64,000 nucleotides of DNA from assembly GCA_041660925.1 (NCBI GenBank), contig JBAZVI010000003.1, positions 221,832 through 285,831 of the forward strand, written 5' to 3'. Shown here one piece after another: positions 3,400 through 64,000 of this stretch (positions are counted from its first letter, which is position 1; each line of letters starts with the position of its first letter). Source of the DNA: Elusimicrobiota bacterium. GTDB taxonomy: Bacteria > Elusimicrobiota > Elusimicrobia > UBA1565. Below the pieces are notes generated by a model. The model was not told the origin of the DNA and ran no database searches. It worked only from the letters and a program-made list of their open reading frames with translations. Both the position numbers and the translations under genes were made by a program.

Positions 3400-6300
3400 C
3401 TAGTCGACGACGCTGAAGAGGTCTTCGGGCTGCGCCTGGAGGAGGCCGTCGGCGGCGAGGCGGTCGTACTGCGCGAGGAGGCCGGCGAAGAAGTCCCGGC
3501 CGACGAGGCGGATGTCCATCTTCGGCGCCTTGCCCCGGTACTTGTTGAGCGCGATGAGCCGGGTCGCTTCCTTGAGCGCGTCGGGGCCGGGCGTCACGAC
3601 GTAGGCGTCCCCTTCCCGGCGGACGGAGCTTCCCCCCGCCGCTTTGCGCTTCGCGGGCGCGATCTTGAGCGGCGTCCCGACCAGGGCGAGGATCTCGTCG
3701 GCCGAGTCGACGACCGAGAAGAGCTCCTCGGGGCGGTGCGCGAGCAGGCCCTGCGCGTGGGCCCGTGCATACTGCTCGCTCAAGCCGCGGTAGTACTCCT
3801 TGCCGACGAGGATGATGCGCTTGGGCGCGGCGCCGAGGTCGTTGCCGTCGATGAGCGCCGAGACCTCCTCGAGCGACGAGGCGCCGCCGGGGAACAGGAG
3901 GAAGTGGTCCGAGGCCTTCGCGAACTGCCCGACGCGGGCGCTCTCGGACTCGGCGGTGCCGATGGCGCGGGAGCGGACGATGTCCTCGTCGCCCCAGGTC
4001 GGGATGCGGACGATGGCGAGGTTCTCCCCCGGCACGACGCCCTCGCGCGGCTTCTCCTGGGAGCCGACGGCCGCGGCCTCGAAGGCCGCGCCCATGACGC
4101 CGGCGTTCCCGCAGCCGGAGAGGATGTTGTAGCCGCGGGCGATGAGCTCGGCGGCCACCTTCGCCGCGACGGCCATGGCGGCGAGGATCTTCTCGTCGGT
4201 GCGCGAGCTGCCCAGCACGGTCACGGTCATCGCGCGCGAGGCGTGCGCTGCGTAGCGCTCGTCGAAGGCCGGGATGTCGGCGAAGGTCTTGGGGCGGGGC
4301 GCGTCCACGGAGGGCCTCCAGGCGCCGGTCTTCCAGGCGGCCTTCACGCGGTCGGCGGCGGCCCACCACGCGTCGAGCGATTCCCAGCGGCCGGTCTTCG
4401 CGTCTTTCTCGACGGGGACCGAGAGGGTCTCCACGGCGAAGCGCGGGTCTGCGAGCGAGCCGCCCAGCTCGGCCAGGTCCCAGACGAGCTCCTTCTCTCG
4501 GATGCGGTCCCAAGCCCGCCAGCCGGTCCAGATGTAGGCGCGGTTCTCCATCACGCGCAGGTATTCGTCCGTGTCCGCCGGGCGGCCGAGGATGTCCTTC
4601 GGGCGCTTCGCGATGAGCGCTTTGTTCAGCGGCAGGCGCATCTTCACGAGGGTCAGCGTGCGCGGGGTGGCCCAGGAGATCTGGCGGGTGAGGTAGCTGA
4701 GGGCCGTCTTGGGGTCGAGCGTCGTGAAGATATGGGAGCCGAAGCGGCCCGCTTCGTCGGGCTCGGCGTAGTCGTCGTAGTGCATGTCGCCCATCGTGCC
4801 CGAGGCCTTGGCCGAGTTCAGGCCGCCGCGCAGGCCGCGATAGACCGTCACGTAGGGTTCGCCGTCGACGTATTCGATGCGGGTCGGGGAGAAGGGGAGG
4901 AGGAAGCGGAGGGAGGGGCCGGCGGGCGTCTTGAGAGCGGCCTGTTCGGGCGGCGCGGGTCCGGATCTCGACGCGCCCTTGCGCATCAGAAGGCCGATCG
5001 TGAGCGCGGCGAGCGCGCTGACCGCGACGTTGACGCCGAAGAGGATGGCCGGCATCGTGAGCACGGCGCCCACGGCAGGGAAGAGGCGCGAGGCGCTCAC
5101 GGCCATGAAGATGGGCAGCATCGCGGCGATGCTCGCCGTCATCATCCACTTCGAGAGGTTGCGGTACTTGTCCTGGGGGAGCTTCTCGGAGTAGTAGGTC
5201 ATCCACTTGTTCGAGTTGATGGTGATGAGCCCGCCCAGGAGCCCCGCCAGCGCGAAGGTGAGCATCGGCAGTTGGAGGAAGGTGGACCAGACGAAGGCGG
5301 TCGCCGCGAGCGCGCCGAGCACGGTCCAGCCCTTGCGGCCCAGCGCCTTCTCGGGCAGGAAGGCGAGGGTGGCGAGCAGGCCCGCGAGCCAGCTCCCCCC
5401 GTCGTAGAGTCCGATCATCGTCCCGGCGGCCGAGGGCGCCGAGAACACGCTCAGCGCCAGCACCGTCGCGAGCACGCCGTAGACCATGAAGTGCATGAAG
5501 CGGAAGAAGGCGTAGGGCAGGTACTCCCCCCAGGAGAGCCGGGAGCCTTCCTGCGCCGAAGGCTTCGACTCGGCCCCCTCCTTGGGCGCGGGAGCGGGCT
5601 TCGTCCAGGGCTCCTTGAACTTGAGGGAGGCGTAAAGAGCCGTCGAGAGGCCGATGCCGATGCTCGAGACCACCATCATCGCCGGTCCGCCCAGGAGGTT
5701 GAGCAGCGGCACCGCGGCGAAGAGGGCCATGACGATGCAGGCGACCTCGACCCACTGGTAGGCGTAGTTGAGGCCGAGCTCGAGCTTCGCGGGGTTCTGG
5801 TTGCCGATGATCATGCGCGGAAGGAGGTTCTCGGCGACGCCGCGGTTGACGCCGTAGACGAGGCCGCCGACGATGGAGTTGGCGAGGAAGAGCCCGAACA
5901 TCACGGCGTTCGTCGCTCCGAGCGCCGCGGCGATGGGGATGGGGAGGCCGGAGACGGCGAGCGCGAGGATGGCGGCGACGTTGACCCACTTCGGGTTGAA
6001 GCGGGCCATGAAGGCCGAGCCCATCCAGGCGCCGGCGACGCGCATGACGTAGCCGATGCCCGCGATCATGAGCGCGGCGGGCAGGCCGAAGAGCGATGCG
6101 GTGAACAGCGGCAGGGCCACCGCCTGCACCTCCTGCGCCATCGCGTTGACGGTCCAGGCCGGGACGAACCCGAGGTGGAAGGAGCGCGGCAGCATGCGCA
6201 GGCGGCCGAGGGCGCCCGCGCGCTGGAAGTCGATGCGGTCGACCCAGTCCTCGGCGAGGGTGCGGCCCTCGCTCGAATCGTGGCCGTAGAGTCCGTCCTG

Positions 6301-42737: not shown

Positions 42738-43657
42738 GAGGATGCCTCCGAAGAGCGGGTTCCTGCGGCCTTCTCCATGAAGAGCTCGGCGGCGCGGTAC
42801 GAGCTGCGCACGAACGGGGCCGAGGCGACGTGGAGGAAGCCCATCGCGCGGGCGCGCGCGCCGAGCTCCTCGAAGCGCGCGGGCGGGACGAACTCGACGA
42901 CGGGAAGGTGGCGCGGCTCGCGCGTCGGGCGCAGGTACTGCCCGAGGGTGAGGACCCGGACCCCGGCCGCAAGGAGGTCCGCGAAGGCCTGCAGAAGCTC
43001 CTCCTCGGTCTCGCCGAGACCGAGCATGAGGGAGGACTTCGTCCAGACCCCCGGCCGCAGTCGCCGGGCGGCGCGCAGGACGGCGAGGGAGAGCGCGTAG
43101 CCCGCGCGCCGGTCGCGCACCGACGGGGTCAGGCGCTCCACGGTCTCGAGGTTGTGGGAGAGCACGTCCGGCCCCTCGGCGAGGACGCGGGCGAGGAGCG
43201 CTTCGTCGCCGCGGAAGTCCTGGGCGAGGAACTCGAGGCGCGTGTCCGGGCAGCGCGTGCGCACGGCGCGCAGGCAGGCCGCGGCGTGCGCGGCGCCCTG
43301 GTCGGGGAGGTCGTCGCGGCAGACGGTGGTGACCACCGCGTAGCGCAGACCCAGGGCGGCGACGCTCTCCGCGAGACCGCGCGGTTCCTCGGGGTCGGGC
43401 GGCGCGGGGCGGGCGGCCGCGGCCACCGAGCAGAAGCGGCAGGTGCGGGTGCAGGAGTCGCCGAGGATCATGAAGGTCGCGGTCCCGGAGGACCAGCACT
43501 CGCCGGCGTTCGGGCAGCGGGCCTCGGAGCAGACGGTGTGCAGGCCCCGGGCGGACGAGAGTCCCTTCACCGTGCGGAACGCGTCTCCGGAGCCGAGTCG
43601 CACCCGCATCCAGGGCGGTAATTTCGCCAGCGGGACCTGCGCCGGTGCCGGGCTCAA
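42734..43657 (-). CDS. lipA: Lipoyl synthase
   Basis: CSEARCPNAGEC and CTRTCRFC cluster motifs; the ORF begins at a TTG overlapping the upstream stop (TTGA); an alternative ATG is 16 codons downstream. Confidence 0.85.
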   Translation of the reverse strand: MSPAPAQVPLAKLPPWMRVRLGSGDAFRTVKGLSSARGLHTVCSEARCPNAGECWSSGTATFMILGDSCTRTCRFCSVAAAARPAPPDPEEPRGLAESVAALGLRYAVVTTVCRDDLPDQGAAHAAACLRAVRTRCPDTRLEFLAQDFRGDEALLARVLAEGPDVLSHNLETVERLTPSVRDRRAGYALSLAVLRAARRLRPGVWTKSSLMLGLGETEEELLQAFADLLAAGVRVLTLGQYLRPTREPRHLPVVEFVPPARFEELGARARAMGFLHVASAPFVRSSYRAAELFMEKAAGTRSSEASS

Positions 43658-44838
43658 CGCGCCTCCGTCTCCGGAGGGGTCGCCGTGCCGGGCTCGGGGA
43701 CGCGGATCTTCTTGCGCCGCGGCCCCTGCTGCTGAGGCGCGCTCCCCTGGAGGTTGCCGAGCATCTGCATCGCCTGCTGCATCATGCGCTGGCGGTCGGC
43801 GGGGGTCAAGTTCGGGTCGCGCATGCCCGTGCGCATCTGGTCCATGAGCTGGGTGACCTGCTTGAGCTGCTCCGCCTGCTCGGGAGGCACGTTCTTCATC
43901 ATGGCGGGGTCATGGAGCTTCTGGCTGACGTTGTCGAGCATGTTGAGCCCCGTCTCGCGCATCTGCTGGACGTCCTGCGCCGTGAGCTGTCGGCCCGGCT
44001 GCACCAGCGGCAGGCCGGAGTTCTGTCCTTCGCTCATGCCCTGGACCATGTCGACGCTCGAGCTCCCGGTGAGCGGGGTCAGCGGCGAGTCGGGGGTCGC
44101 CGCGCCGACGAGGTCGGGGACCGGCTGCACCGGAGTGCCCGTCGCGCCGGGCTCCCCGCCCGCGGGGCCTGCGGCCTGCTGCAGGGCGCTCATCCCGGAG
44201 GCGAGACCGGAGGCCGTCGAGTAGAGGTTGGCCGCCAGCTCGGCCTGGCGCTGCGCCCGCTCGAAGGCGGGGCGCATGAGGATCTGTCCCGCGAGGAGCA
44301 CCACGGTCAGGGCCCCGACGACGATGGTCGACTGGACGCCGGGGGCCTCGTGGAGCTCGCTGAGTCCCCGGGCGAAGAGGAAGGCGCCGAGCAGGGTGGG
44401 CACCAGCGAGAGGTAGGGGACGGGGACCCAAAGGGCCGCGGAGGCGACCGCGAGCAGCGGGGAGAGGAGCGCGAGGAGCTGGTAGCTCCGCTCGTAACCG
44501 CCCTTCCCGCCCGAGAGGGCCGAGAGCGCGAGGATGACGCCGGCTCCGGCGAAGCCGAGGACGAGGGCGAGCAGGAGTCCTCCGAGCAGGGCCAGAGAGG
44601 CGGGGAGCGGACCGATCGCCGCCGTCGCGGGCAGGGTCATGAGGGCCATGAGCAGCTGCACGAGGAGGGCGGCCGCGGCCCAGACCAGGACGACGCCCGT
44701 CATCGCGCCGAAGCCGGGCGGGGGCGCGAAGCGGTGCGCCTCGAAGACGGCGCCCGGCGCGAAGAGCACGCGCAGGGAGTCCTCGAGCAGGGCGAGGAGT
44801 CCGGGGGCTTCGACGGGGGCGGCTTCTTCTTCGCTCAT
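43654..44838 (-). CDS. Hypothetical membrane protein (Yip1-like 5-TM core, Q/M-rich C-terminal tail)
   Basis: Hydrophobic core and a low-complexity tail rich in Q/M; begins 2 nt after the HK stop. Confidence 0.45.
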   Translation of the reverse strand: MSEEEAAPVEAPGLLALLEDSLRVLFAPGAVFEAHRFAPPPGFGAMTGVVLVWAAAALLVQLLMALMTLPATAAIGPLPASLALLGGLLLALVLGFAGAGVILALSALSGGKGGYERSYQLLALLSPLLAVASAALWVPVPYLSLVPTLLGAFLFARGLSELHEAPGVQSTIVVGALTVVLLAGQILMRPAFERAQRQAELAANLYSTASGLASGMSALQQAAGPAGGEPGATGTPVQPVPDLVGAATPDSPLTPLTGSSSVDMVQGMSEGQNSGLPLVQPGRQLTAQDVQQMRETGLNMLDNVSQKLHDPAMMKNVPPEQAEQLKQVTQLMDQMRTGMRDPNLTPADRQRMMQQAMQMLGNLQGSAPQQQGPRRKKIRVPEPGTATPPETEAR

Positions 44839-44839
44839 C

Positions 44840-46078
44840 TCATCCTCCGGCGCGGCGGGAGGCCCAGGTCGAGTCTCCGGTGCGGACGTTCGGCAGGGCG
44901 GGTCGGACGGGGAAAAGGACGCGCACGAGGGTCTTCCCCCCCGCGCTCTCGAGGGCGAGGGTCCCGCCGGTGCCCTCGACCATGCGCCGGGCCATCGAGA
45001 GGCCCAGACCGAGACCCCCGCGGTCGGACTTCGAGGTCGAGAGCGGCTCGAAGACCCGGGCGATGCGGTCGGGGGCGACCCCGCCGGCGTCGTCCTCGAT
45101 GACGACCTCGGCGCAGGGCTCTCCGGGCTTGAGCTCCACGCGGACCGTCCCCGCGCCGTCGGCCGGGAAGGCCTCGAAGGCGTTGTCGAGCACGCTGGCG
45201 AGAACGCAGAAGGCGAGACGGCGGTTGCCCTGCAGGGCCAGGGAGGAGGATGCGAGCTTCAGGCGCACCCGCGGCCGGGGGACCGAGGCGCGCGCCGACT
45301 CCGCGGCCTCGGCGAGGACGGTGCCGAGGTCGAAGTCGACGGCCATCGGCGCCGTGCGCCGCGTCGTCGTCTGCACGGCGTCCACGGTCCGGACGATCTT
45401 GGCGTTGAGCTCCGCGACCATGCGCCGCAGCTTCTGGGCGATGTCCTTGCCCGCTTGGTCGTGCGCGGAGAGGGCGATGTGCTCGGCGACGGTGGTGATG
45501 GAGGTGAGGTAGTCGCGCAGCTGGAAGAAGAGGTGCGTGACGTACTCCGTCACCTGGAGCTGGCGCTGCAGGGACACGGATTCGCGGACGGTCCGCGCGC
45601 GGCGGGCGAGGAGGAGCGCGGAGACGACCGCGCAGGCGGCGGGCGCGAGCGCGAGGGCGCTCAGGCGCACGATGAACAGCGGGTCGGTCCAGGCCAGGCC
45701 TGCGCGCAGGAGCAGGAAGGCCGTGCAGGCGGCGGCGGCGGCCCAGACCAGGACGGCCAGGAGCCCGGGCAGCAGGAGCGCCGCGAGGGTCAGGGGCACG
45801 AAGAAGCCGGGGAGGAGGTCGGCGGAGGCCGGCTGCGCGTACAGGCTCGCGATCCCGACGGCGAGCGCGTCGAGCGACAGGAGCGCCGCGATCGCCGCCG
45901 GCGGCGGCTCGCGCAGGAGGAAGGCCGCGACGGCCGAGACCCAGACCGCGGCGGAGAGGATCGCGAGCGGGAACTCCGTCGAGATGAGCAGGCCGCCCTT
46001 CTTCAGGAGGAAGATCCAGGCGATGACGGCGAGGAGGTTCGCGGCGCGCAGGATCGTCGCGGCGCGGAAGAGGCTCAT
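44840..46078 (-). CDS. Membrane sensor histidine kinase (polytopic N-terminus, HisKA + HATPase_c), orphan
   Basis: HATPase G-boxes (..DDAGGV..RIFEPL..GLGLGLS..), a conserved His region and about 6 TM helices; start at MSLFRAATIL overlapping the maf stop (ATGA). Confidence 0.7.
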   Translation of the reverse strand: MSLFRAATILRAANLLAVIAWIFLLKKGGLLISTEFPLAILSAAVWVSAVAAFLLREPPPAAIAALLSLDALAVGIASLYAQPASADLLPGFFVPLTLAALLLPGLLAVLVWAAAAACTAFLLLRAGLAWTDPLFIVRLSALALAPAACAVVSALLLARRARTVRESVSLQRQLQVTEYVTHLFFQLRDYLTSITTVAEHIALSAHDQAGKDIAQKLRRMVAELNAKIVRTVDAVQTTTRRTAPMAVDFDLGTVLAEAAESARASVPRPRVRLKLASSSLALQGNRRLAFCVLASVLDNAFEAFPADGAGTVRVELKPGEPCAEVVIEDDAGGVAPDRIARVFEPLSTSKSDRGGLGLGLSMARRMVEGTGGTLALESAGGKTLVRVLFPVRPALPNVRTGDSTWASRRAGG

Positions 46079-57258: not shown

Positions 57259-59709
57259 GTGGAGAAGATGAAGAAGGCTGCGGCGCTCTTCATACTGGCG
57301 ATCCAGCTGCACTCGGCGGCCTTCGCGGCGGGCGTCCCCGCCACGCTCGCGGCCGGCGAGTCCCTCCCCCCCCATGCCGAGAGCTTCGGACTCGGAGCCG
57401 CCAACGACGGGAGCATCCTCCGCCAGCGCCAGGACGATGCCTCGGGCGCGGTCGAGATCGAGAAGGTCGAACGCGAGGCGTTCCGCCGCATCGCCGCCTT
57501 CCTTCTTAGGCTCCCCCTCTCCGACCCCCAGGGCGGCATGGCCCTGGCCCTCAAGAGCTACCTCGCGCCCCGCATGGACCCCCGGGAGGTCGACAACAAC
57601 ATCTTCCTCAAGCGGACCGCGGGCGGCCAGCTTCGCTTGACGAAGCTCGGCTATCAGGCCCTTTTCGACATCATCACGGCTCGCGACGGCGCCCTCATCG
57701 AGCCGATCGTCGAGCTCAAGCCGTCGGTCCCGACGACCCAGGCCTCCGCCGGCGGCTCCGCCGCCTGGGCCGAGCCGGGAGCCCTCGCCGCCTTCGACGC
57801 CGCCGAATTCGCGGGGGCCTCCCCGGCCCGGGCTTTCGACGGCGCCCGCCACAGCGTGGGCTCCTTCGACTGGAACGGCCTCGAAACCGCGGTGACCGCC
57901 GCCGGCGGCCTGACCTCCGCGGGCTCCGCCGCCCCCGCCGCCCCCGCCATGCTCGAGGGCTACGCGGTGGACCGGGAGCGCAACACGGTCCGCGTCATCG
58001 TCGCCGCCAGCCGCACGGTGGCCTCCGACCGCTTCAAGATGCGCGCCGAGGACGGCGCCGAGGTGCTCCGCGAGGCCGGTCTCGACGCGCAGCTCTTCGA
58101 GCGCAGCGGCGCGAAGGTCGTCCGCGCCGTCGACAACCTCGTCACTGTGGACGTCCCCCTCCCGCAGGCGGCCGCCCTCGGCCTGTCCCTCGAGGCGCGC
58201 GGCGTCGAGAGCCGCCCCGCGCGCGTCTTCCGCGCCGCCGCCGAGGCCCTCGCGGGCCCGGCGGGCTCCCTGCTCGGCGCACAGTTCCTCCCGGTCCCCT
58301 CCGCGCCGCTCGTCGGCGCCGTCTCCGACGCCGCGCGCAAGGCGGCCGAGGCGAAGATGGTCGACGCTCTCTCGACCCTGCGCGCCGGCGAGCTCTGGGA
58401 CGCCGGGATGAAGGGCCGCGGGACGCTCGTGGGCGTCATCGACTCGGGAATCGACCCGACGCACCCGGACTTCAAGGACAAGAGCGGGAACAGCCGCATC
58501 GAGGAGTACCTGGACTTCACCGAGGAGGGCAAGGACGACGTCGTCGGGCACGGTACCCACGTCTCCGGCACCATCGGCGGCACCGGCGCGGCCTCTGAGG
58601 GCCGCTTCGCCGGCCTCGCGCCCGAGACCCGCTTCAAGGTCGCGAAGGTCTTCGGGGTCAAGGGCGAGACCGACGAGTCGGTCATCCTCGCGGCGATGAA
58701 GTGGATGGCCGACGCCGGCAAGGACGGCAAGGCCAAGGTCGACGTGCTCAACATGAGCCTCGGCGGCCCCGGCGAGCCCAACAAGGACCCGCTCGGCTCG
58801 ATGGCCAACCATCTCGTCGTGGACAAGAACATCCTGGTCGTCGCCGCGGCCGGCAACGAGGGCGCCGCGGGCATGCGCACCGTCGGCACCCCGGGCAACG
58901 CGCGCTACGCCCTCACCGTCTCCGGGGTCAACAAGGACGGGGAGTTCCCCTTCTTCGTCTCGAAGGGCCCTGCCGCCGGCGAGGACGGCGACCTCTACAA
59001 CAAGCCCGACGTCAGCGCCATCGCCGGCGACGTGGACCTGAGCAAGCTCGAGCAGTCCCTGCTCCAGACCCAGCTCCGCAAGGACGAGCAGGCCGAGCCC
59101 CCGACGACCACCGCCGCGGCGAAGCCCGAGGGGATGACCGCGGTCGCCGGCCCCGCTCTCAACGCCGTCGGCTGCGTCTACGCGCCGGGAGGCGTCATCG
59201 CTCCGCGCAGCTCCAAGGACCCCGACGGCGTCTGCGGCGTCGACGGCGCCCCGGCCTACCGCTACATGTCGGGCACCTCGATGGCGACCCCGATGGTGGC
59301 CGGGATGTCCGCCGACGTCATCGGCTACCTCAAGGACAAGGGCGTCCGCTACGACGCCTTCCAGGTCCGCGCCCTCGTCATGGAGACCGCCCGCGACCTC
59401 GGCAAGGGGCGCGAGCAGCAGGGGACCGGCCTCGTCGACGGCAAGCGCCTCGCCCAGACCGTTGCCGACCGCGTCTCCCGCGGCCTGCCGGTCGGCAACG
59501 TGGCCTTCGCCCTCTCGACGCGCATGACCGTCGAGGATCAGGGGCGCATCAAGGACCAGACCCGCTACGCCATGACCCCGCTGGGCCTGCTCGACACGCG
59601 GACCGGGCGCCTCATCAACAACGAAAAAGACTTCAAGCGCGCCGTCGAGGAGATCCACCGCACGCCCAAGCTGCTGATGGTCAACAGCAACGCCATCCGG
59701 CAAGCGTAA
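57259..59709 (+). CDS. Secreted subtilisin-like serine protease (S8 family, 816 aa)
   Basis: Asp/His/Ser triad contexts GVIDSGIDPTHPDF, HGTHVSGTIGG and GTSMATPMVAG; signal peptide; the antisense 838-aa ORF is junk. Confidence 0.85.
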   Translation: MEKMKKAAALFILAIQLHSAAFAAGVPATLAAGESLPPHAESFGLGAANDGSILRQRQDDASGAVEIEKVEREAFRRIAAFLLRLPLSDPQGGMALALKSYLAPRMDPREVDNNIFLKRTAGGQLRLTKLGYQALFDIITARDGALIEPIVELKPSVPTTQASAGGSAAWAEPGALAAFDAAEFAGASPARAFDGARHSVGSFDWNGLETAVTAAGGLTSAGSAAPAAPAMLEGYAVDRERNTVRVIVAASRTVASDRFKMRAEDGAEVLREAGLDAQLFERSGAKVVRAVDNLVTVDVPLPQAAALGLSLEARGVESRPARVFRAAAEALAGPAGSLLGAQFLPVPSAPLVGAVSDAARKAAEAKMVDALSTLRAGELWDAGMKGRGTLVGVIDSGIDPTHPDFKDKSGNSRIEEYLDFTEEGKDDVVGHGTHVSGTIGGTGAASEGRFAGLAPETRFKVAKVFGVKGETDESVILAAMKWMADAGKDGKAKVDVLNMSLGGPGEPNKDPLGSMANHLVVDKNILVVAAAGNEGAAGMRTVGTPGNARYALTVSGVNKDGEFPFFVSKGPAAGEDGDLYNKPDVSAIAGDVDLSKLEQSLLQTQLRKDEQAEPPTTTAAAKPEGMTAVAGPALNAVGCVYAPGGVIAPRSSKDPDGVCGVDGAPAYRYMSGTSMATPMVAGMSADVIGYLKDKGVRYDAFQVRALVMETARDLGKGREQQGTGLVDGKRLAQTVADRVSRGLPVGNVAFALSTRMTVEDQGRIKDQTRYAMTPLGLLDTRTGRLINNEKDFKRAVEEIHRTPKLLMVNSNAIRQA

Positions 59710-60258: not shown

Positions 60259-61398
60259 CTAGACGGGCTTGGAGCCCCGGGGGAAATGCATGGGGACGGG
60301 CAGGGAAACCTGGCGCATGCACTCGAGCGCGAAACCGTCGGTCATCCCGGCGATGTAGTCGGTCACGATGGTCCTGGCGGCCCAGCCCTCGCGCTCGTAG
60401 ACGGGGCGCAGCTGTTCGCAGTAGTGGCCGAAGTTGCGGTCGCTCTCGAGGTCGAGCGCGTGGTAGGCCTTGAAGTCGGTGCCGTTCCTCTCGAAGAGCT
60501 CGACGAAGTAGTCGAAGAGCGTGTGGATGACCGTCTTGATGTGGCGGCGGTACTTGAGCAGGCGCGGGTGGTAGTAGATGCGCTGGTAGTTGAATTCCCC
60601 GAGTTCCTTGACCAGGAGGAGGCGCTCCGGGGAGAAGCCGATGGCGTCGGCCTTCGCGGAGTGCGCGACCACGTCGTCGATGAGGGCGCTGATGATGTCG
60701 GTGTTGGAGTCTCCGAGCGCCTCCGCCACGCGCCGCGGCACATCGGCCTTCGTGATGAAGCCCGCGGTGACCGCGTCCTCGATGTCGCGGCCGAGGTAGG
60801 CGATGCGGTCGGCCAGGCGGACGACGCAGCCCTCGCAGGTGGTGGGCATGTAGGCGCGGTCGTGGATGTTCTCGAGGTCGTTGGCCGTCGTCGATGGGCG
60901 CAGGTCGTTCTGCAGGAAGTCCTCGCCGTTGTGGCAGATGATGCCGTCCTTCACGGCGTAGGTCAGGTTGAGGCCCTGGCCGTGGTTGGCGAGGTGTTCG
61001 ACGACGCGGTAGCTGTTGAGCTCGTGGAGGAAGGCTTTCGGGGCGCCGAGGCGCGCGGCGAGCTCCTTCTCCCCCTCGTGGCCGAAGGGTGCGTGCCCGA
61101 GGTCGTGTCCCAGGCCGATGGCGTAGGCCAGCTCGGTGTCGAGCTCCCAGTCCCCGCCGGAGAGGTTCAGGCCGCGGCAGACCGTCGCGGCGATGGTCGC
61201 GACGTGGAGGACGTGTTCGATGCGCGTGCAGATGTGGTCGTTGTCGGGGGCGTAGAAGACCTGGGCCTTGTGCTTGAGGCGCCGGAACGGGTAGGAGTGG
61301 ATGATCTTGGTCTGGTCGCGGAAGTAGTCGGCGCGCATGTCCGGCGCGGTCTGTTTGCTGCGGCGGAGGTAGACGTCGACGGGGAGCGGGTTCTTCAT
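60259..61398 (-). CDS. dgt: dGTP triphosphohydrolase-like HD-domain protein
   Basis: HD motif ..HVLHVATIA..GLGHDLGHAPFGH..; 379 aa; ATGA overlap with the upstream gene; the rest of ORF 60259..63114 is junk. Confidence 0.8.
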   Translation of the reverse strand: MKNPLPVDVYLRRSKQTAPDMRADYFRDQTKIIHSYPFRRLKHKAQVFYAPDNDHICTRIEHVLHVATIAATVCRGLNLSGGDWELDTELAYAIGLGHDLGHAPFGHEGEKELAARLGAPKAFLHELNSYRVVEHLANHGQGLNLTYAVKDGIICHNGEDFLQNDLRPSTTANDLENIHDRAYMPTTCEGCVVRLADRIAYLGRDIEDAVTAGFITKADVPRRVAEALGDSNTDIISALIDDVVAHSAKADAIGFSPERLLLVKELGEFNYQRIYYHPRLLKYRRHIKTVIHTLFDYFVELFERNGTDFKAYHALDLESDRNFGHYCEQLRPVYEREGWAARTIVTDYIAGMTDGFALECMRQVSLPVPMHFPRGSKPV

Positions 61399-62489
61399 CG
61401 GGGCCTCTGCTTCTGTCTCTGCGCGGAGCTGAAGGCGGCGCCGGAGCGCGCGACGCCGGCGGGGATGGCGCGCGCGAGCTCCCTGAGCGCGCGCAGGGCC
61501 TCCTCGCGGTCGCAGGCGGTGCTCAAACAGTGGCGCGCGTGCTCGTGCGCGAAGCGGACGTCCGGCGCGGCGAGCGCGCGCGTGTAGTCCTGGACGGCGT
61601 CGGCGCGGCGGCCGAGGACGTCGCGGGCGAGGCCGCGCCAGAACAGGAGCGCGGCGGTCCAGCGCGCGGCGGACTTCTCGACGAGCGCGCGGTCCAGCCA
61701 GCGCTCGGCCTCCTCGGCGTAGGGGCGCTCGAAGCAGTGCGCGCCGGCGAGACCGCAGAAGAGCGAGAGCTCCTTGCGCTCGAAGGAGGGGTCCGCGGGG
61801 GCTTCCGCGAGCAGGGCGAAGAGGGCGCGCGCGGAGCGGTCCCAGTCGCCGGCGCGGGAGAGCAGGATGACCTCGCGATAGCGGAGGTAGGCGCTGCGCG
61901 GGAACTCGACGCGCAGGCGCGCGAGCAGCTCGAGGGCGCCGGCGACGTCGCCCTCCCTTATGAGGATCGTGAGGAGGAAGCCGGCGGCCTGGTCCTTCGA
62001 GAAGCGGCCGCGCTCCATCGCCTGACGCATGCGCGCGAGGCCTCGCCGGGCGTCGCCGCGGTGGACGAAGAGCATCGGGAGCTTCATGAGCGTCGGCAGC
62101 CGGTCGGTCTGATAGTCGAAGATCCCGAGCCCGAGGTAGGCGTCGTGGTAGTCCGGGTCGAGCTTCACGCACTTCTTGAGGTGCCTGATGGCTTTCTTTC
62201 CGTCGGAGTAGGCCTTCAGGTGATGCCCGCGGGCGAGCTCCATCTGGCCATGGATCCCGAGCGCCATGCCCGCGGCGAAGTGCCCATCGGCCTTGCGCGC
62301 CGGGTCCTTGGAGTCGAGCAGCGGCTCGCTCGTCTCCAGGACCTTGCGCACGTCCTCCTCGAAGAGGGCGTCGAGCGGGGAGGTGTCCTTGAAGAGCGCG
62401 TACTCCGCGTCGGCCTCCCACCACAGGACGCCGGCCTCGCCGAGCCAGCCCAGCGGGTTGTTGGGCTGCTCGTCGATGAGGCGGCGCAT
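61395..62489 (-). CDS. TPR-like repeat protein; probably secreted if the in-frame upstream signal-peptide-like stretch (to about 62654) is translated from a non-canonical start
   Basis: Helical-repeat composition; the first canonical start is ATG 62489, but 55 in-frame codons upstream encode ..RLLSVVLLLVPGALWAAEGP.. Confidence 0.5.
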   Translation of the reverse strand: MRRLIDEQPNNPLGWLGEAGVLWWEADAEYALFKDTSPLDALFEEDVRKVLETSEPLLDSKDPARKADGHFAAGMALGIHGQMELARGHHLKAYSDGKKAIRHLKKCVKLDPDYHDAYLGLGIFDYQTDRLPTLMKLPMLFVHRGDARRGLARMRQAMERGRFSKDQAAGFLLTILIREGDVAGALELLARLRVEFPRSAYLRYREVILLSRAGDWDRSARALFALLAEAPADPSFERKELSLFCGLAGAHCFERPYAEEAERWLDRALVEKSAARWTAALLFWRGLARDVLGRRADAVQDYTRALAAPDVRFAHEHARHCLSTACDREEALRALRELARAIPAGVARSGAAFSSAQRQKQRPR

Positions 62490-62654
62490 GTGCGCGCGGG
62501 CCGCGGCGTAGTCGAGGTCGTAGATCGCACCGACGGCGCGATGGGCGGTCTCCTCGATGCCGGCCTCCGTGACGGTCCCCGCGGGAGGGCCTTCGGCGGC
62601 CCAGAGGGCCCCGGGGACGAGGAGGAGGACGACGCTCAGGAGCCGGATCGTCGT

Positions 62655-63587
62655 TCAGACCTCGGAGGGGTCGTGTTCGCGGTGCGACTGCACGGTGTGG
62701 CGGTGGTGAGCGATGGGCATGCCGTTGCGCCGCCAGTAGCTGCGGATGGCCCCCCAGGCCTCTTCGGCGGTGTCCACGGTCTGCACGAGGTCCAGGTCTC
62801 CGGGCGAGATGACGCCCTGCTCGGAGAGGTACTTCACGTCGATGACCCGCGACCAGAACTCCCGCCCGACGAGGATGACGGGGAGCTGGGACTTCTTGCT
62901 CGTCTGCACGAGGGTCAGAGTCTCGAAGAGCTCGTCGAAGGTCCCGAAGCCGCCGGGGAACGCGACCATCGCCTTCGCGCGCATGAGGAAGTGCATCTTG
63001 CGGATGGCGAAATAGTGGAACAGGAAGGAGAGCTCGGGCGTGACGAAGGGGTTGGGCTCCTGCTCGTGCGGGAGGGTGATGTTGAGCCCGATGCTCTTCC
63101 CCCCCGCCTCCCACGCTCCGCGGTTGGCCGCTTCCATGATGCCGGGGCCTCCCCCGGTGACCATGACGAAGTGGCGGCGTCCCTTCCCCTGGGAGGCCTT
63201 CGTGACGATGTAGCTGAAGCGTCGGGCCTCGTCATAATAGCGGGAGAGCTTCTGCAGGCGCTTGGCCGCGTCGAGCTCCGTGCGCAGGCGCGCATCGCGG
63301 GGCAGGCGCTTGAGCGCCGCGCCCAGCTTCGCGATCTGGGCCTCCGCTTCGTCGGGAGGCTGGATGCGCGCGCTGCCGAAGACGATGATGGTGGACTCGA
63401 TCTTGTTCTCGATGAGGACCATCTCGGGCTTGAGCAGCTCGAGCTGCAGGCGCATGGGGCGCAGCTCCTCGCGGGCGAGGAAGTCGATGTCCTGATAGGC
63501 CTTCCGGTAGGTGCGGGAGGCTCGGAGATCGTCGAGCATCTTGCGGCGCTGCTGGGGGGTGATCTTCACGGCTTTCATGTCGTCCAT
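62655..63587 (-). CDS. LOG-family protein (TIGR00730, cytokinin riboside 5'-monophosphate phosphoribohydrolase / PpnN-like nucleotide nucleosidase)
   Basis: GGGPGIMEA and PGGFGTFDEL motifs; 310 aa. Confidence 0.8.
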   Translation of the reverse strand: MDDMKAVKITPQQRRKMLDDLRASRTYRKAYQDIDFLAREELRPMRLQLELLKPEMVLIENKIESTIIVFGSARIQPPDEAEAQIAKLGAALKRLPRDARLRTELDAAKRLQKLSRYYDEARRFSYIVTKASQGKGRRHFVMVTGGGPGIMEAANRGAWEAGGKSIGLNITLPHEQEPNPFVTPELSFLFHYFAIRKMHFLMRAKAMVAFPGGFGTFDELFETLTLVQTSKKSQLPVILVGREFWSRVIDVKYLSEQGVISPGDLDLVQTVDTAEEAWGAIRSYWRRNGMPIAHHRHTVQSHREHDPSEV

Positions 63588-63618: not shown

Positions 63619-63924
63619 GTGCACGGACCGGGTAATTATGCACGTTTTGGCCGGGCGATTTCGGCCGCCCGGCAAGGCGCAAGGAGCGAGGATACCTTGA
63701 GGTATCTGAGCGACGCGCAACGCCGCCGGCGGCTGAAAGCGCCCGAGCCTGCGCAAGGAAGCTTCTCCGTCGGAGACAGCGGAACGACTGCCGAGGCCCT
63801 CCCCTGGGCGGCTTCCGCGTCGCTCCTCCCTCAGATAGCTCTGGCCGCTATCCTCGGTCATCGCTCCTTGAATCCGCATCAGGCTCGGGCCTCCAAAACG
63901 CGCATAATTACCCGGTCAGTGCAC
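63619..63924. mobile_element. MITE-like element or large structured RNA: 306 bp bounded by 32-bp terminal inverted repeats (30/32 identical), with no transposase
   Basis: Left GTGCACGGACCGGGTAATTATGCACGTTTTGG. Right CCAAAACGCGCATAATTACCCGGTCAGTGCAC. Internal hairpin GGCCGGGCG..CGGCCGCCCGGC. Internal ORFs (91 and 138 aa) look spurious. Confidence 0.4.
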
Positions 63925-64000
63925 TAGGCACAGGCTCAGCCCGGGGGCGTAGGTCACGGCCAGAAGCACGAGCGCATGGATCAGCCAGAACGGCGTCACG
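63916..64000 (-). CDS. C-terminal end of a membrane protein whose gene continues beyond the window (..VTPFWLIHALVLLAVTYAPGLSLCLVH*)
   Basis: Open hydrophobic reading frame to the window edge; its TGA stop lies inside the right inverted repeat of the MITE-like element. Confidence 0.3.
   Translation of the reverse strand, partial: VTPFWLIHALVLLAVTYAPGLSLCLVH

Follow-up and report, generated by a model that had tools for sequence, protein, structure and literature searches.

A TPR gene without a canonical start codon directly behind a LOG-family stop codon in an Elusimicrobiota genome, and its probable initiation at a near-cognate codon

Where does a gene begin when no canonical start codon precedes the part of its reading frame that is conserved? 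This question is raised by two minus-strand genes in a 64,000-nt stretch of DNA from an Elusimicrobiota bacterium (hereafter the window), which belongs to a 354,779-bp contig of a metagenome-assembled genome (MAG). The first gene, of the LOG / TIGR00730 family, ends with a TGA at 62657-62655. This stop is followed in the same frame by 55 sense codons (TTIRLLSVVLLLVPGALWAAEGPPAGTVTEAGIEETAHRAVGAIYDLDYAAARAH), none of which is ATG, GTG or TTG, before an ATG at 62489 from which the second gene, encoding a protein with tetratricopeptide (TPR) repeats, is publicly annotated (NCBI MFA6029461.1, 364 aa); 363 more codons follow until a TGA at 61397-61395. An earlier reading of the sequence (the original prediction) had described this arrangement, and its coordinates and the content of the 55 codons are exact, the ATG at 62489 being real and identical with the start of MFA6029461.1. 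The best explanation overall, which we regard as probable, is that the TPR protein would arise from near-cognate initiation just after the LOG stop, LOG and TPR being two separate, tightly packed genes of an operon DctM - LOG - TPR - HD. The parts in question are given below, together with their state in L001 (Logan SRR29400112), the closest distinct relative (92.4% DNA identity).

62655..63587, minus strand: LOG / TIGR00730-family gene, 310 aa, the upstream partner (PF03641, TIGR00730).
62655..62657, minus strand: LOG stop codon TGA, next base A, in frame with the TPR gene; TGAACG is kept in L001.
62490..62654, minus strand: 55 codons absent from the annotated protein (G+C content at third codon positions (GC3) 0.93; 92.5% amino acid identity to L001; they hold the residue D48).
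62487..62489, minus strand: ATG chosen as start in the public annotation, encoding an internal Met midway through predicted helix 2; homologues have R, T or K here.
61395..62654, minus strand: TPR gene after correction, of about 415-419 codons according to which start is used, as indicated by homologue length, the TPR_19 match and the ratio of non-synonymous to synonymous substitution rates (dN/dS).

Both partners are recognised by their profile matches. The LOG protein scores 106.6 bits against Pfam PF03641 and 103.8 against NCBIfam TIGR00730 (cutoff 96.35), and it carries the motifs FPGGFGTFDE and TGGGPGIME (family pattern PGGxGTxxE, GGGxGxM); against the cytokinin-LOG equivalog NF058542 it stays below threshold (29.4 vs a cutoff of 300). 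The best 120 of its homologues are 275-334 aa long, and the LOG gene therefore has its native end at this TGA. The TPR protein matches PF14559 TPR_19 (41.2, cutoff 25) and TPR_14 (31.3, cutoff 23.5).

A search with the extended TPR protein, translated from the codon after the LOG stop, returned 25 relatives, of which those with a source name are from Elusimicrobia and 24 were aligned. These relatives are mostly 380-440 aa long (full range 362-442) and none has a LOG domain. In 21 of the 24, the protein opens with a Met, usually next to a basic residue, and continues into a hydrophobic leader whose counterpart in the alignment is IRLLSVVLLLVPGA; the remaining three are P0001 (the protein of L001, called from an internal Met), P0006 (a mis-called start) and P0016 (a contig end). 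With P0006 and P0016 set aside, since their N-termini are mis-called or cut, the count is 21 of 22. Further along, the annotated ATG falls within a conserved block, LYxLDY..RA..R.LIE..P.NP, in which D48 is nearly invariant. The homologue alignment also served for an AlphaFold2 model (mean pLDDT 82.3, pTM 0.80, 23 helices), which leaves residues 1-29 disordered, as expected of a leader, and places the annotated Met at residue 56, near the centre of helix 2 (residues 49-62). Foldseek against the PDB gave generic TPR solenoids only (top: CTPR, OGT and APC6 TPR domains) and no functional lead. Two features of the upstream codons can accordingly be placed.

62598..62648, minus strand: predicted signal-peptide coding stretch, (I/M)RLLSVVLLLVPGALWA, aligned to the leaders of Met-initiated homologues.
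62520..62567, minus strand: predicted helix 1 of the TPR-like solenoid (AlphaFold2, pLDDT 86-89), residues 30-45 in the numbering of the extended protein.

The hydrophobic core of this leader, LLSVVLLLV, reaches a Kyte-Doolittle 11-residue maximum of 2.8, and the leader holds no Cys. Its best predicted cleavage site lies after ALWA and before AE, with A at -1 and a tolerated L at -3; the convincing signal peptide of the original prediction is thus borne out as a coding leader that aligns with those of homologues, but the AxA pattern is not strictly matched. GC3 is the same in the 55 codons as in the window genes. Since the leaders of Met-initiated homologues align to them, the 55 codons are coding, for a predicted signal peptide and a first TPR-like helix that form the true N-terminus, and the public gene model is about 50 residues too short at its front. 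The original prediction had asked for orthologous loci to be compared, with a canonical start at the equivalent of 62489 and unconserved upstream codons as the outcome that would speak for the annotation; the comparison gave the opposite, that is, conserved upstream codons and starts at about the equivalent of 62648.

The simplest objection to a gene without a start is that the start was lost in sequencing or assembly, either from a true ATG at 62648 or by a frameshift near the junction. The ATC at 62648 is one substitution away from ATG, and the source is a MAG. However, the locus is present in a second assembly, L008 (JGI Ga0172379_10067459), which matches over 2916 nt with a single mismatch, at 62858, and is identical at the junction. 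Moreover, L001, from a separate sequencing run, has no canonical start either, and it has a different codon (CTC) at the 62648 site. Its junction reads gag gtc TGA ACG CTC CGG CTC CTG AGC GCC GTC CTC, that of the window TGA ACG ACG ATC CGG CTC CTG AGC GTC, so that L001 has one ACG fewer and CTC for ATC. As in the window, the TPR frame of L001 is the LOG frame, and its TPR gene (P0001, 362 aa) has also been called from an internal Met, with an ATG at the position equivalent to 62489. A frameshift error would offer no rescue, because ATG, GTG and TTG trinucleotides are absent from all three frames of the minus strand from 62692 to 62531 (about 160 nt) and from every frame across 210 nt of L001; a canonical start in another frame joined by a frameshift was rejected on these grounds. 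An error, which the original prediction had listed among its possible explanations, is on this evidence hardly credible.

The window and L001 are distant enough for selection to be estimated between them (Nei-Gojobori method), with the following results.

LOG: dN/dS 0.048.
TPR core: dN/dS 0.160, with dS 0.26.
55-codon extension: dN/dS 0.305, from 5 synonymous and 4 non-synonymous changes, with indels of 3 and 9 nt.
HD: dN/dS 0.056.

All indels between the two sequences are multiples of 3, and the changes in the extension are spread over about 46 synonymous and 113 non-synonymous sites. These values are suggestive of selection on the extension by itself; for the whole TPR gene, purifying selection in the start-less lineage is clearly indicated by the substitution pattern. 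They also bear on the possibility that the annotation is right, with a cytoplasmic, N-terminally shortened TPR protein, devoid of a leader, made from the ATG at 62489 and the 55 codons left as a decaying relic. We find this improbable. It is true that 62489 is the first canonical start, that an ATG stands there in L001 too and that two gene callers picked it, and a stop-free frame is cheap at 70% G+C, where 55 start-free codons have P = 0.10; but a relic would hardly be expected to keep the amino acid identity, the balance of synonymous to non-synonymous changes, the in-frame indels and the GC3 given above. Met56 also lies well inside a confidently modelled helix, so that a start there would cost the protein helix 1 and half of the second helix and leave the nearly invariant D48 upstream of it, and no Shine-Dalgarno-like motif precedes 62489 (upstream sequence gccgcggcccgcgcgcac). 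Five invariant or nearly invariant cysteines in the TPR homologue alignment would fit an exported protein.

By parsimony, the canonical start was lost before the window and L001 separated, through a change of ATG to ATC that was followed by ATC to CTC in L001. Such a loss could have silenced the gene and left a young TPR pseudogene whose open frame has yet to decay. Besides the missing start, the TPR dN/dS of 0.16, three times that of the neighbours, fits this idea, and in L014 (Ga0172379_10001185, 3501-6263), which carries the closest other LOG (P0030, 75% identity), the place between LOG and HD is taken by a response regulator instead of TPR, which shows that some relatives can do without the TPR gene. 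Yet the shared loss would predate a split at dS ~0.25, the 417-codon frame is intact in both lineages with dN/dS well below 1, and the ATGA overlap with the HD gene is kept; separate recent losses at this codon would cost three substitutions rather than two. A pseudogene is in our judgement quite improbable. The start-less lineage itself is small in the data at hand: a scan of genome contigs for further members gave distant relatives only and a scan of metagenomes gave only the near-identical L008, and the clusters at 90% contain 2 members for TPR and 3 for LOG.

In five more distant loci, LOG likewise lies directly upstream of TPR, as a separate gene, and the two frames differ in 5/5. The TPR starts of these relatives are as follows.

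L002-L004: ATG, 8-nt overlap with the LOG stop (ATGCCTGA).
L013: ATG, 8-nt overlap with the LOG stop (ATGCCTGA).
L005: ATG, 17-nt overlap with the LOG stop.
L006: ATG, 14 nt past the LOG TAA, behind GAGGAAGGA.
L011/L012: TTG, 11 nt past the LOG TAA.

At L011 2432-2500 (and in L012) we observed that P0006 is called too short: the TTG gives a leader, MRPAGICILFCASCLPAKA, that the ATG call at 2501 omits. Among the 120 best LOG homologues there is no fusion, none being longer than 334 aa or carrying a TPR domain. Because the relatives have two genes and none of these 120 LOG homologues is fused, we rejected the idea of a broken LOG-TPR fusion, and with it the recent nonsense mutation that the original prediction had considered: five relatives start their TPR gene from an ATG or TTG of its own in another frame. 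By this comparison, the ancestral state is a pair of tightly packed genes, probably coupled in translation.

How, then, might the TPR protein be started in the window? In the mechanism that we favor, the ancestral ATG, at the site of the ATC at 62648, would have been lost in the window lineage while the gene continued to be expressed, with ribosomes starting at a near-cognate codon 0-15 nt past the LOG stop. The candidates and the motif that may assist them are listed here.

62637..62654, minus strand: putative initiation zone with four in-frame near-cognate codons.
62654, minus strand: ACG, +0 nt past the TGA, common to L001.
62651, minus strand: ACG, +3 nt past the TGA, absent in L001.
62648, minus strand: ATC, +6 nt past the TGA, opposite Met1 of homologues in the alignment; L001 has CTC.
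62639, minus strand: CTG, +15 nt past the TGA, common to L001 (+12 nt there).
62660..62663, minus strand: Shine-Dalgarno-like GAGG within the last LOG codons (GGAGG in L001).

The GAGG box lies 5, 8, 11 and 20 nt from ACG, ACG, ATC and CTG, respectively, and would help initiation at the first three, which it precedes by 5-11 nt; those window genes that have a Shine-Dalgarno sequence carry GGAG or GAGG 3-7 nt before the start, as in the HD gene (GAGG, 5 nt ahead of the ATG). A further aid to the start may come from ribosomes that terminate at the LOG TGA, through termination-reinitiation coupling. This coupling acts only over a very short range (PMC10666635; review PMC12548453), with a drop of 40-80% at +14 nt and abolition at about 20-38 nt (PMC10666635), and all four candidate codons are within 15 nt of the TGA, inside that range. 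Measurements in E. coli put initiation from AUC and CUG at 1-2% of the AUG level and that from most other codons at 0.1-1%, and GFP initiated at ACG or AUC was found by mass spectrometry to carry an N-terminal Met (bioRxiv 10.1101/063800). The ATC would be the best single candidate in the window, as it combines the best codon, the ancestral position and the leader MRLLSVV. In L001, where ATC has become CTC, the start would have to be ACG or CTG, and therefore at least one lineage would depend on one of these two codons. The choice also affects the n-region of the leader, since the R at 62645 is included with an ACG or ATC start, or with readthrough, and excluded with the CTG at 62639. The resulting product would be an exported, all-helical repeat protein, with its predicted Sec-type signal peptide directly past the LOG stop. 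We infer initiation rather than readthrough, as well as the codon used and the help from coupling. The rare start (CTG or ATC) of the original prediction is accordingly retained as the best explanation, on the basis of the conserved coding leader and the missing canonical start, with ACG added to the possible codons.

Near-cognate initiation nevertheless has its qualifications and counter-evidence. The gap in itself is not a strong signal: in this window of 70.6% G+C, canonical start triplets make up 4.1% of the sense codons of genes, a start-free run of 55 codons has a chance of P ~0.10, and 8.6% of the inter-start runs within genes are at least 55 codons long. The run by itself is thus unremarkable and, given this P, the case rests on homology and not on statistics. 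Taken by themselves, the 55 codons give a weak selection signal (Fisher p = 0.08), and with two independent sequences of the start-less lineage (n = 2) the conservation of ACG and CTG is statistically not meaningful. None of the candidates is free of difficulty. At the ancestral Met site the lineages have different codons (ATC in the window vs CTC in L001), ACG is a weak start in E. coli, and a CTG start would give a leader without positive charge, at a distance from the Shine-Dalgarno-like box of 20 nt in the window and 14 nt in L001. Finally, the common frame of LOG and TPR is preserved in both lineages, which is what readthrough would need, and the data fit both initiation and UGA readthrough.

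Readthrough would mean that a near-cognate tRNA such as tRNA-Trp decodes the LOG UGA at a low level and yields a LOG-TPR fusion, in which the hydrophobic stretch would serve as an internal signal-anchor, with LOG in the cytoplasm and TPR exported and possibly cleaved past LWA. We regard this as unlikely, although of the alternatives it has the most to be said for it. TPR is in the LOG frame in both start-less sequences, where the 3-nt indel keeps the frame, whereas the frames differ in 5/5 relatives with a start of their own; the arrangement, however, has a prior of 1 in 3, and the indel is a slippage of the ACG ACG repeat. The stop is UGA-A in the window and in L001. UGA is reportedly the leakiest stop and UGAA a rather weak context, as Poole, Brown and Tate are said to have described in 1995; but TGA is the normal stop here, ending 25/35 frames with high GC3. 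Basic residues before the stop (HHRHTVQSHREH) would suit a positive-inside topology, but a folded cytoplasmic enzyme that carries its leader internally, 313 residues in, would make an unusual substrate for export. The absence of any fused protein among the 120 best LOG homologues argues against readthrough as well. Nor did the RNA offer support: neither a selenocysteine insertion sequence (SECIS) nor another Rfam element was found on the coding strand (no minus-strand match at E <= 10), the 131-nt junction folds no better than shuffled sequences (z = 0.12), and the sole local hairpin (ACGACG/CGUCGU) is destroyed in L001. Of the programmed readthrough that had originally been suggested, the programmed part thus falls away for want of SECIS or conserved structure, while readthrough as such stays among the rivals at the strength just given. 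Two further forms of recoding were rejected: genome-wide reassignment of TGA, because TGA ends the 25/35 frames mentioned above and LOG ends where its homologues end, and selenocysteine, for which there is no SECIS, the window holding no tRNA of any kind.

A stricter version, in which the exported TPR protein is made only through readthrough of the LOG UGA, so that a cytoplasmic enzyme is fused to an internal cleavable signal peptide, seems to us slightly more doubtful still. If it were true, TPR output would be a small constant fraction of LOG output, and the locus would be a natural case of readthrough-dependent export in bacteria, preserved for dS ~0.25, which would be considerably more interesting.

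The proposed near-cognate initiation, to which we return, also has to be seen among the neighbouring genes. Downstream, the HD gene begins within the end of the TPR gene, its ATG overlapping the TPR stop as ATGA (GATGAAG), and the identical 4-nt overlap is present in L001. Upstream, the C-terminus of a DctM subunit of a tripartite ATP-independent periplasmic (TRAP) transporter occupies the first 84 nt of the minus strand (63917-64000).

60259..61398, minus strand: dGTP-triphosphohydrolase-like HD gene (TIGR01353 174.9, cutoff 152.35).

Some side observations concern the same region. Between the DctM stop and the LOG start lies a 306-bp element resembling a miniature inverted-repeat transposable element (MITE; 63619-63924), the sole copy in the window, with 32-nt terminal inverted repeats that are 94% complementary, 242 nt between the arms and one arm spanning the DctM stop codon; in relatives, the DctM-LOG spacing is 8-16 nt or the genes overlap. 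Several Elusimicrobia (L002-L004, L011, L014) keep a TRAP operon (TAtT, DctP, DctQ, DctM) followed by LOG. In L014, which belongs to another Elusimicrobia genome of the JGI metagenome that yielded L008, the order is TAtT-DctP-DctQ-DctM-LOG-HD-S8 peptidase, and an S8 peptidase gene is also nearby in L002 and in the window (57268-59709, plus strand). As for translation starts in general, many apparent first genes of operons in the window have no Shine-Dalgarno sequence and carry a TATAAT-like box (tatagaat, tatagact, tagaat, tataat, tatcat) that ends 6-8 nt before the ATG or GTG (starts at e.g. 56929, 38382, 24718, 28912, 36584, 13028 and 8295), a pattern suggestive of frequent leaderless mRNAs in this Elusimicrobia genome. 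Elsewhere in the window, a minus-strand open frame with high GC3 (43654-45258) runs for 140 codons from its upstream stop to its first canonical start at 44838, and may represent either another start problem or a high-G+C antisense or overlap artefact.

How does the locus compare with what has been described? Known genes with non-canonical starts include E. coli infC and pcnB (AUU) as well as CTG, ATT, ATC and ATA starts in annotated genomes. The AUU of infC is conserved and serves autoregulation. Like these genes, the TPR gene has no ATG, GTG or TTG between the in-frame stop and its conserved N-terminus, has a Shine-Dalgarno-like box upstream and is kept under selection; unlike in infC, the codon at the ancestral Met site differs between lineages, and no regulatory role is evident. 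The pair also resembles genes linked by termination-reinitiation (PMC6728339, PMC10666635, PMC12548453), with the same orientation, distances of -17 to +14 nt in the relatives and 0-15 nt for the candidates, and the TPR/HD junction is a classic ATGA overlap; the described coupled pairs have canonical starts, however, whereas reinitiation here would be at a near-cognate codon. With UGA readthrough and selenocysteine recoding the locus shares an in-frame UGA followed by a conserved open coding frame, but there is no SECIS, conserved structure or fused homologue, and the relatives show two independent genes. Finally, the TPR protein is like the TAtT periplasmic TPR proteins (PF16811; Treponema pallidum Tp0956) in being a predicted exported all-alpha repeat protein in a TRAP operon context, the order being TAtT-DctP-DctQ-DctM-LOG-TPR in L002-L004 and DctQ-DctM-LOG-TPR in L011, with the DctM C-terminus in the window. 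It differs from TAtT in that it has no match to Pfam PF16811 and in that, in L002-L004, it is a gene separate from the TAtT at the start of the operon. The recurrence of this Elusimicrobia-specific TPR family behind TAtT-DctPQM-LOG hints at a link with TRAP transport.

To conclude, the locus represents ordinary biology, probably a bacterial non-canonical start in a coupled gene pair, together with a mis-annotated N-terminus, and no new class of system. Two details are unusual: the ancestral Met site holds a near-cognate codon that is itself unconserved, and the upstream stop lies in the frame of the gene. Both MFA6029461.1 and the Logan call P0001 lack the predicted signal peptide and first helix, and predictions of localisation or structure made from them would be wrong; P0006, from another genome, is similarly mis-called. 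The locus is a natural case in which ATG, GTG and TTG have been lost under continued selection in two diverged lineages, one of them without even an AUN near-cognate codon, and it may bear on how far stop-start packing tolerates very weak starts, or on whether UGA leakiness can replace initiation.

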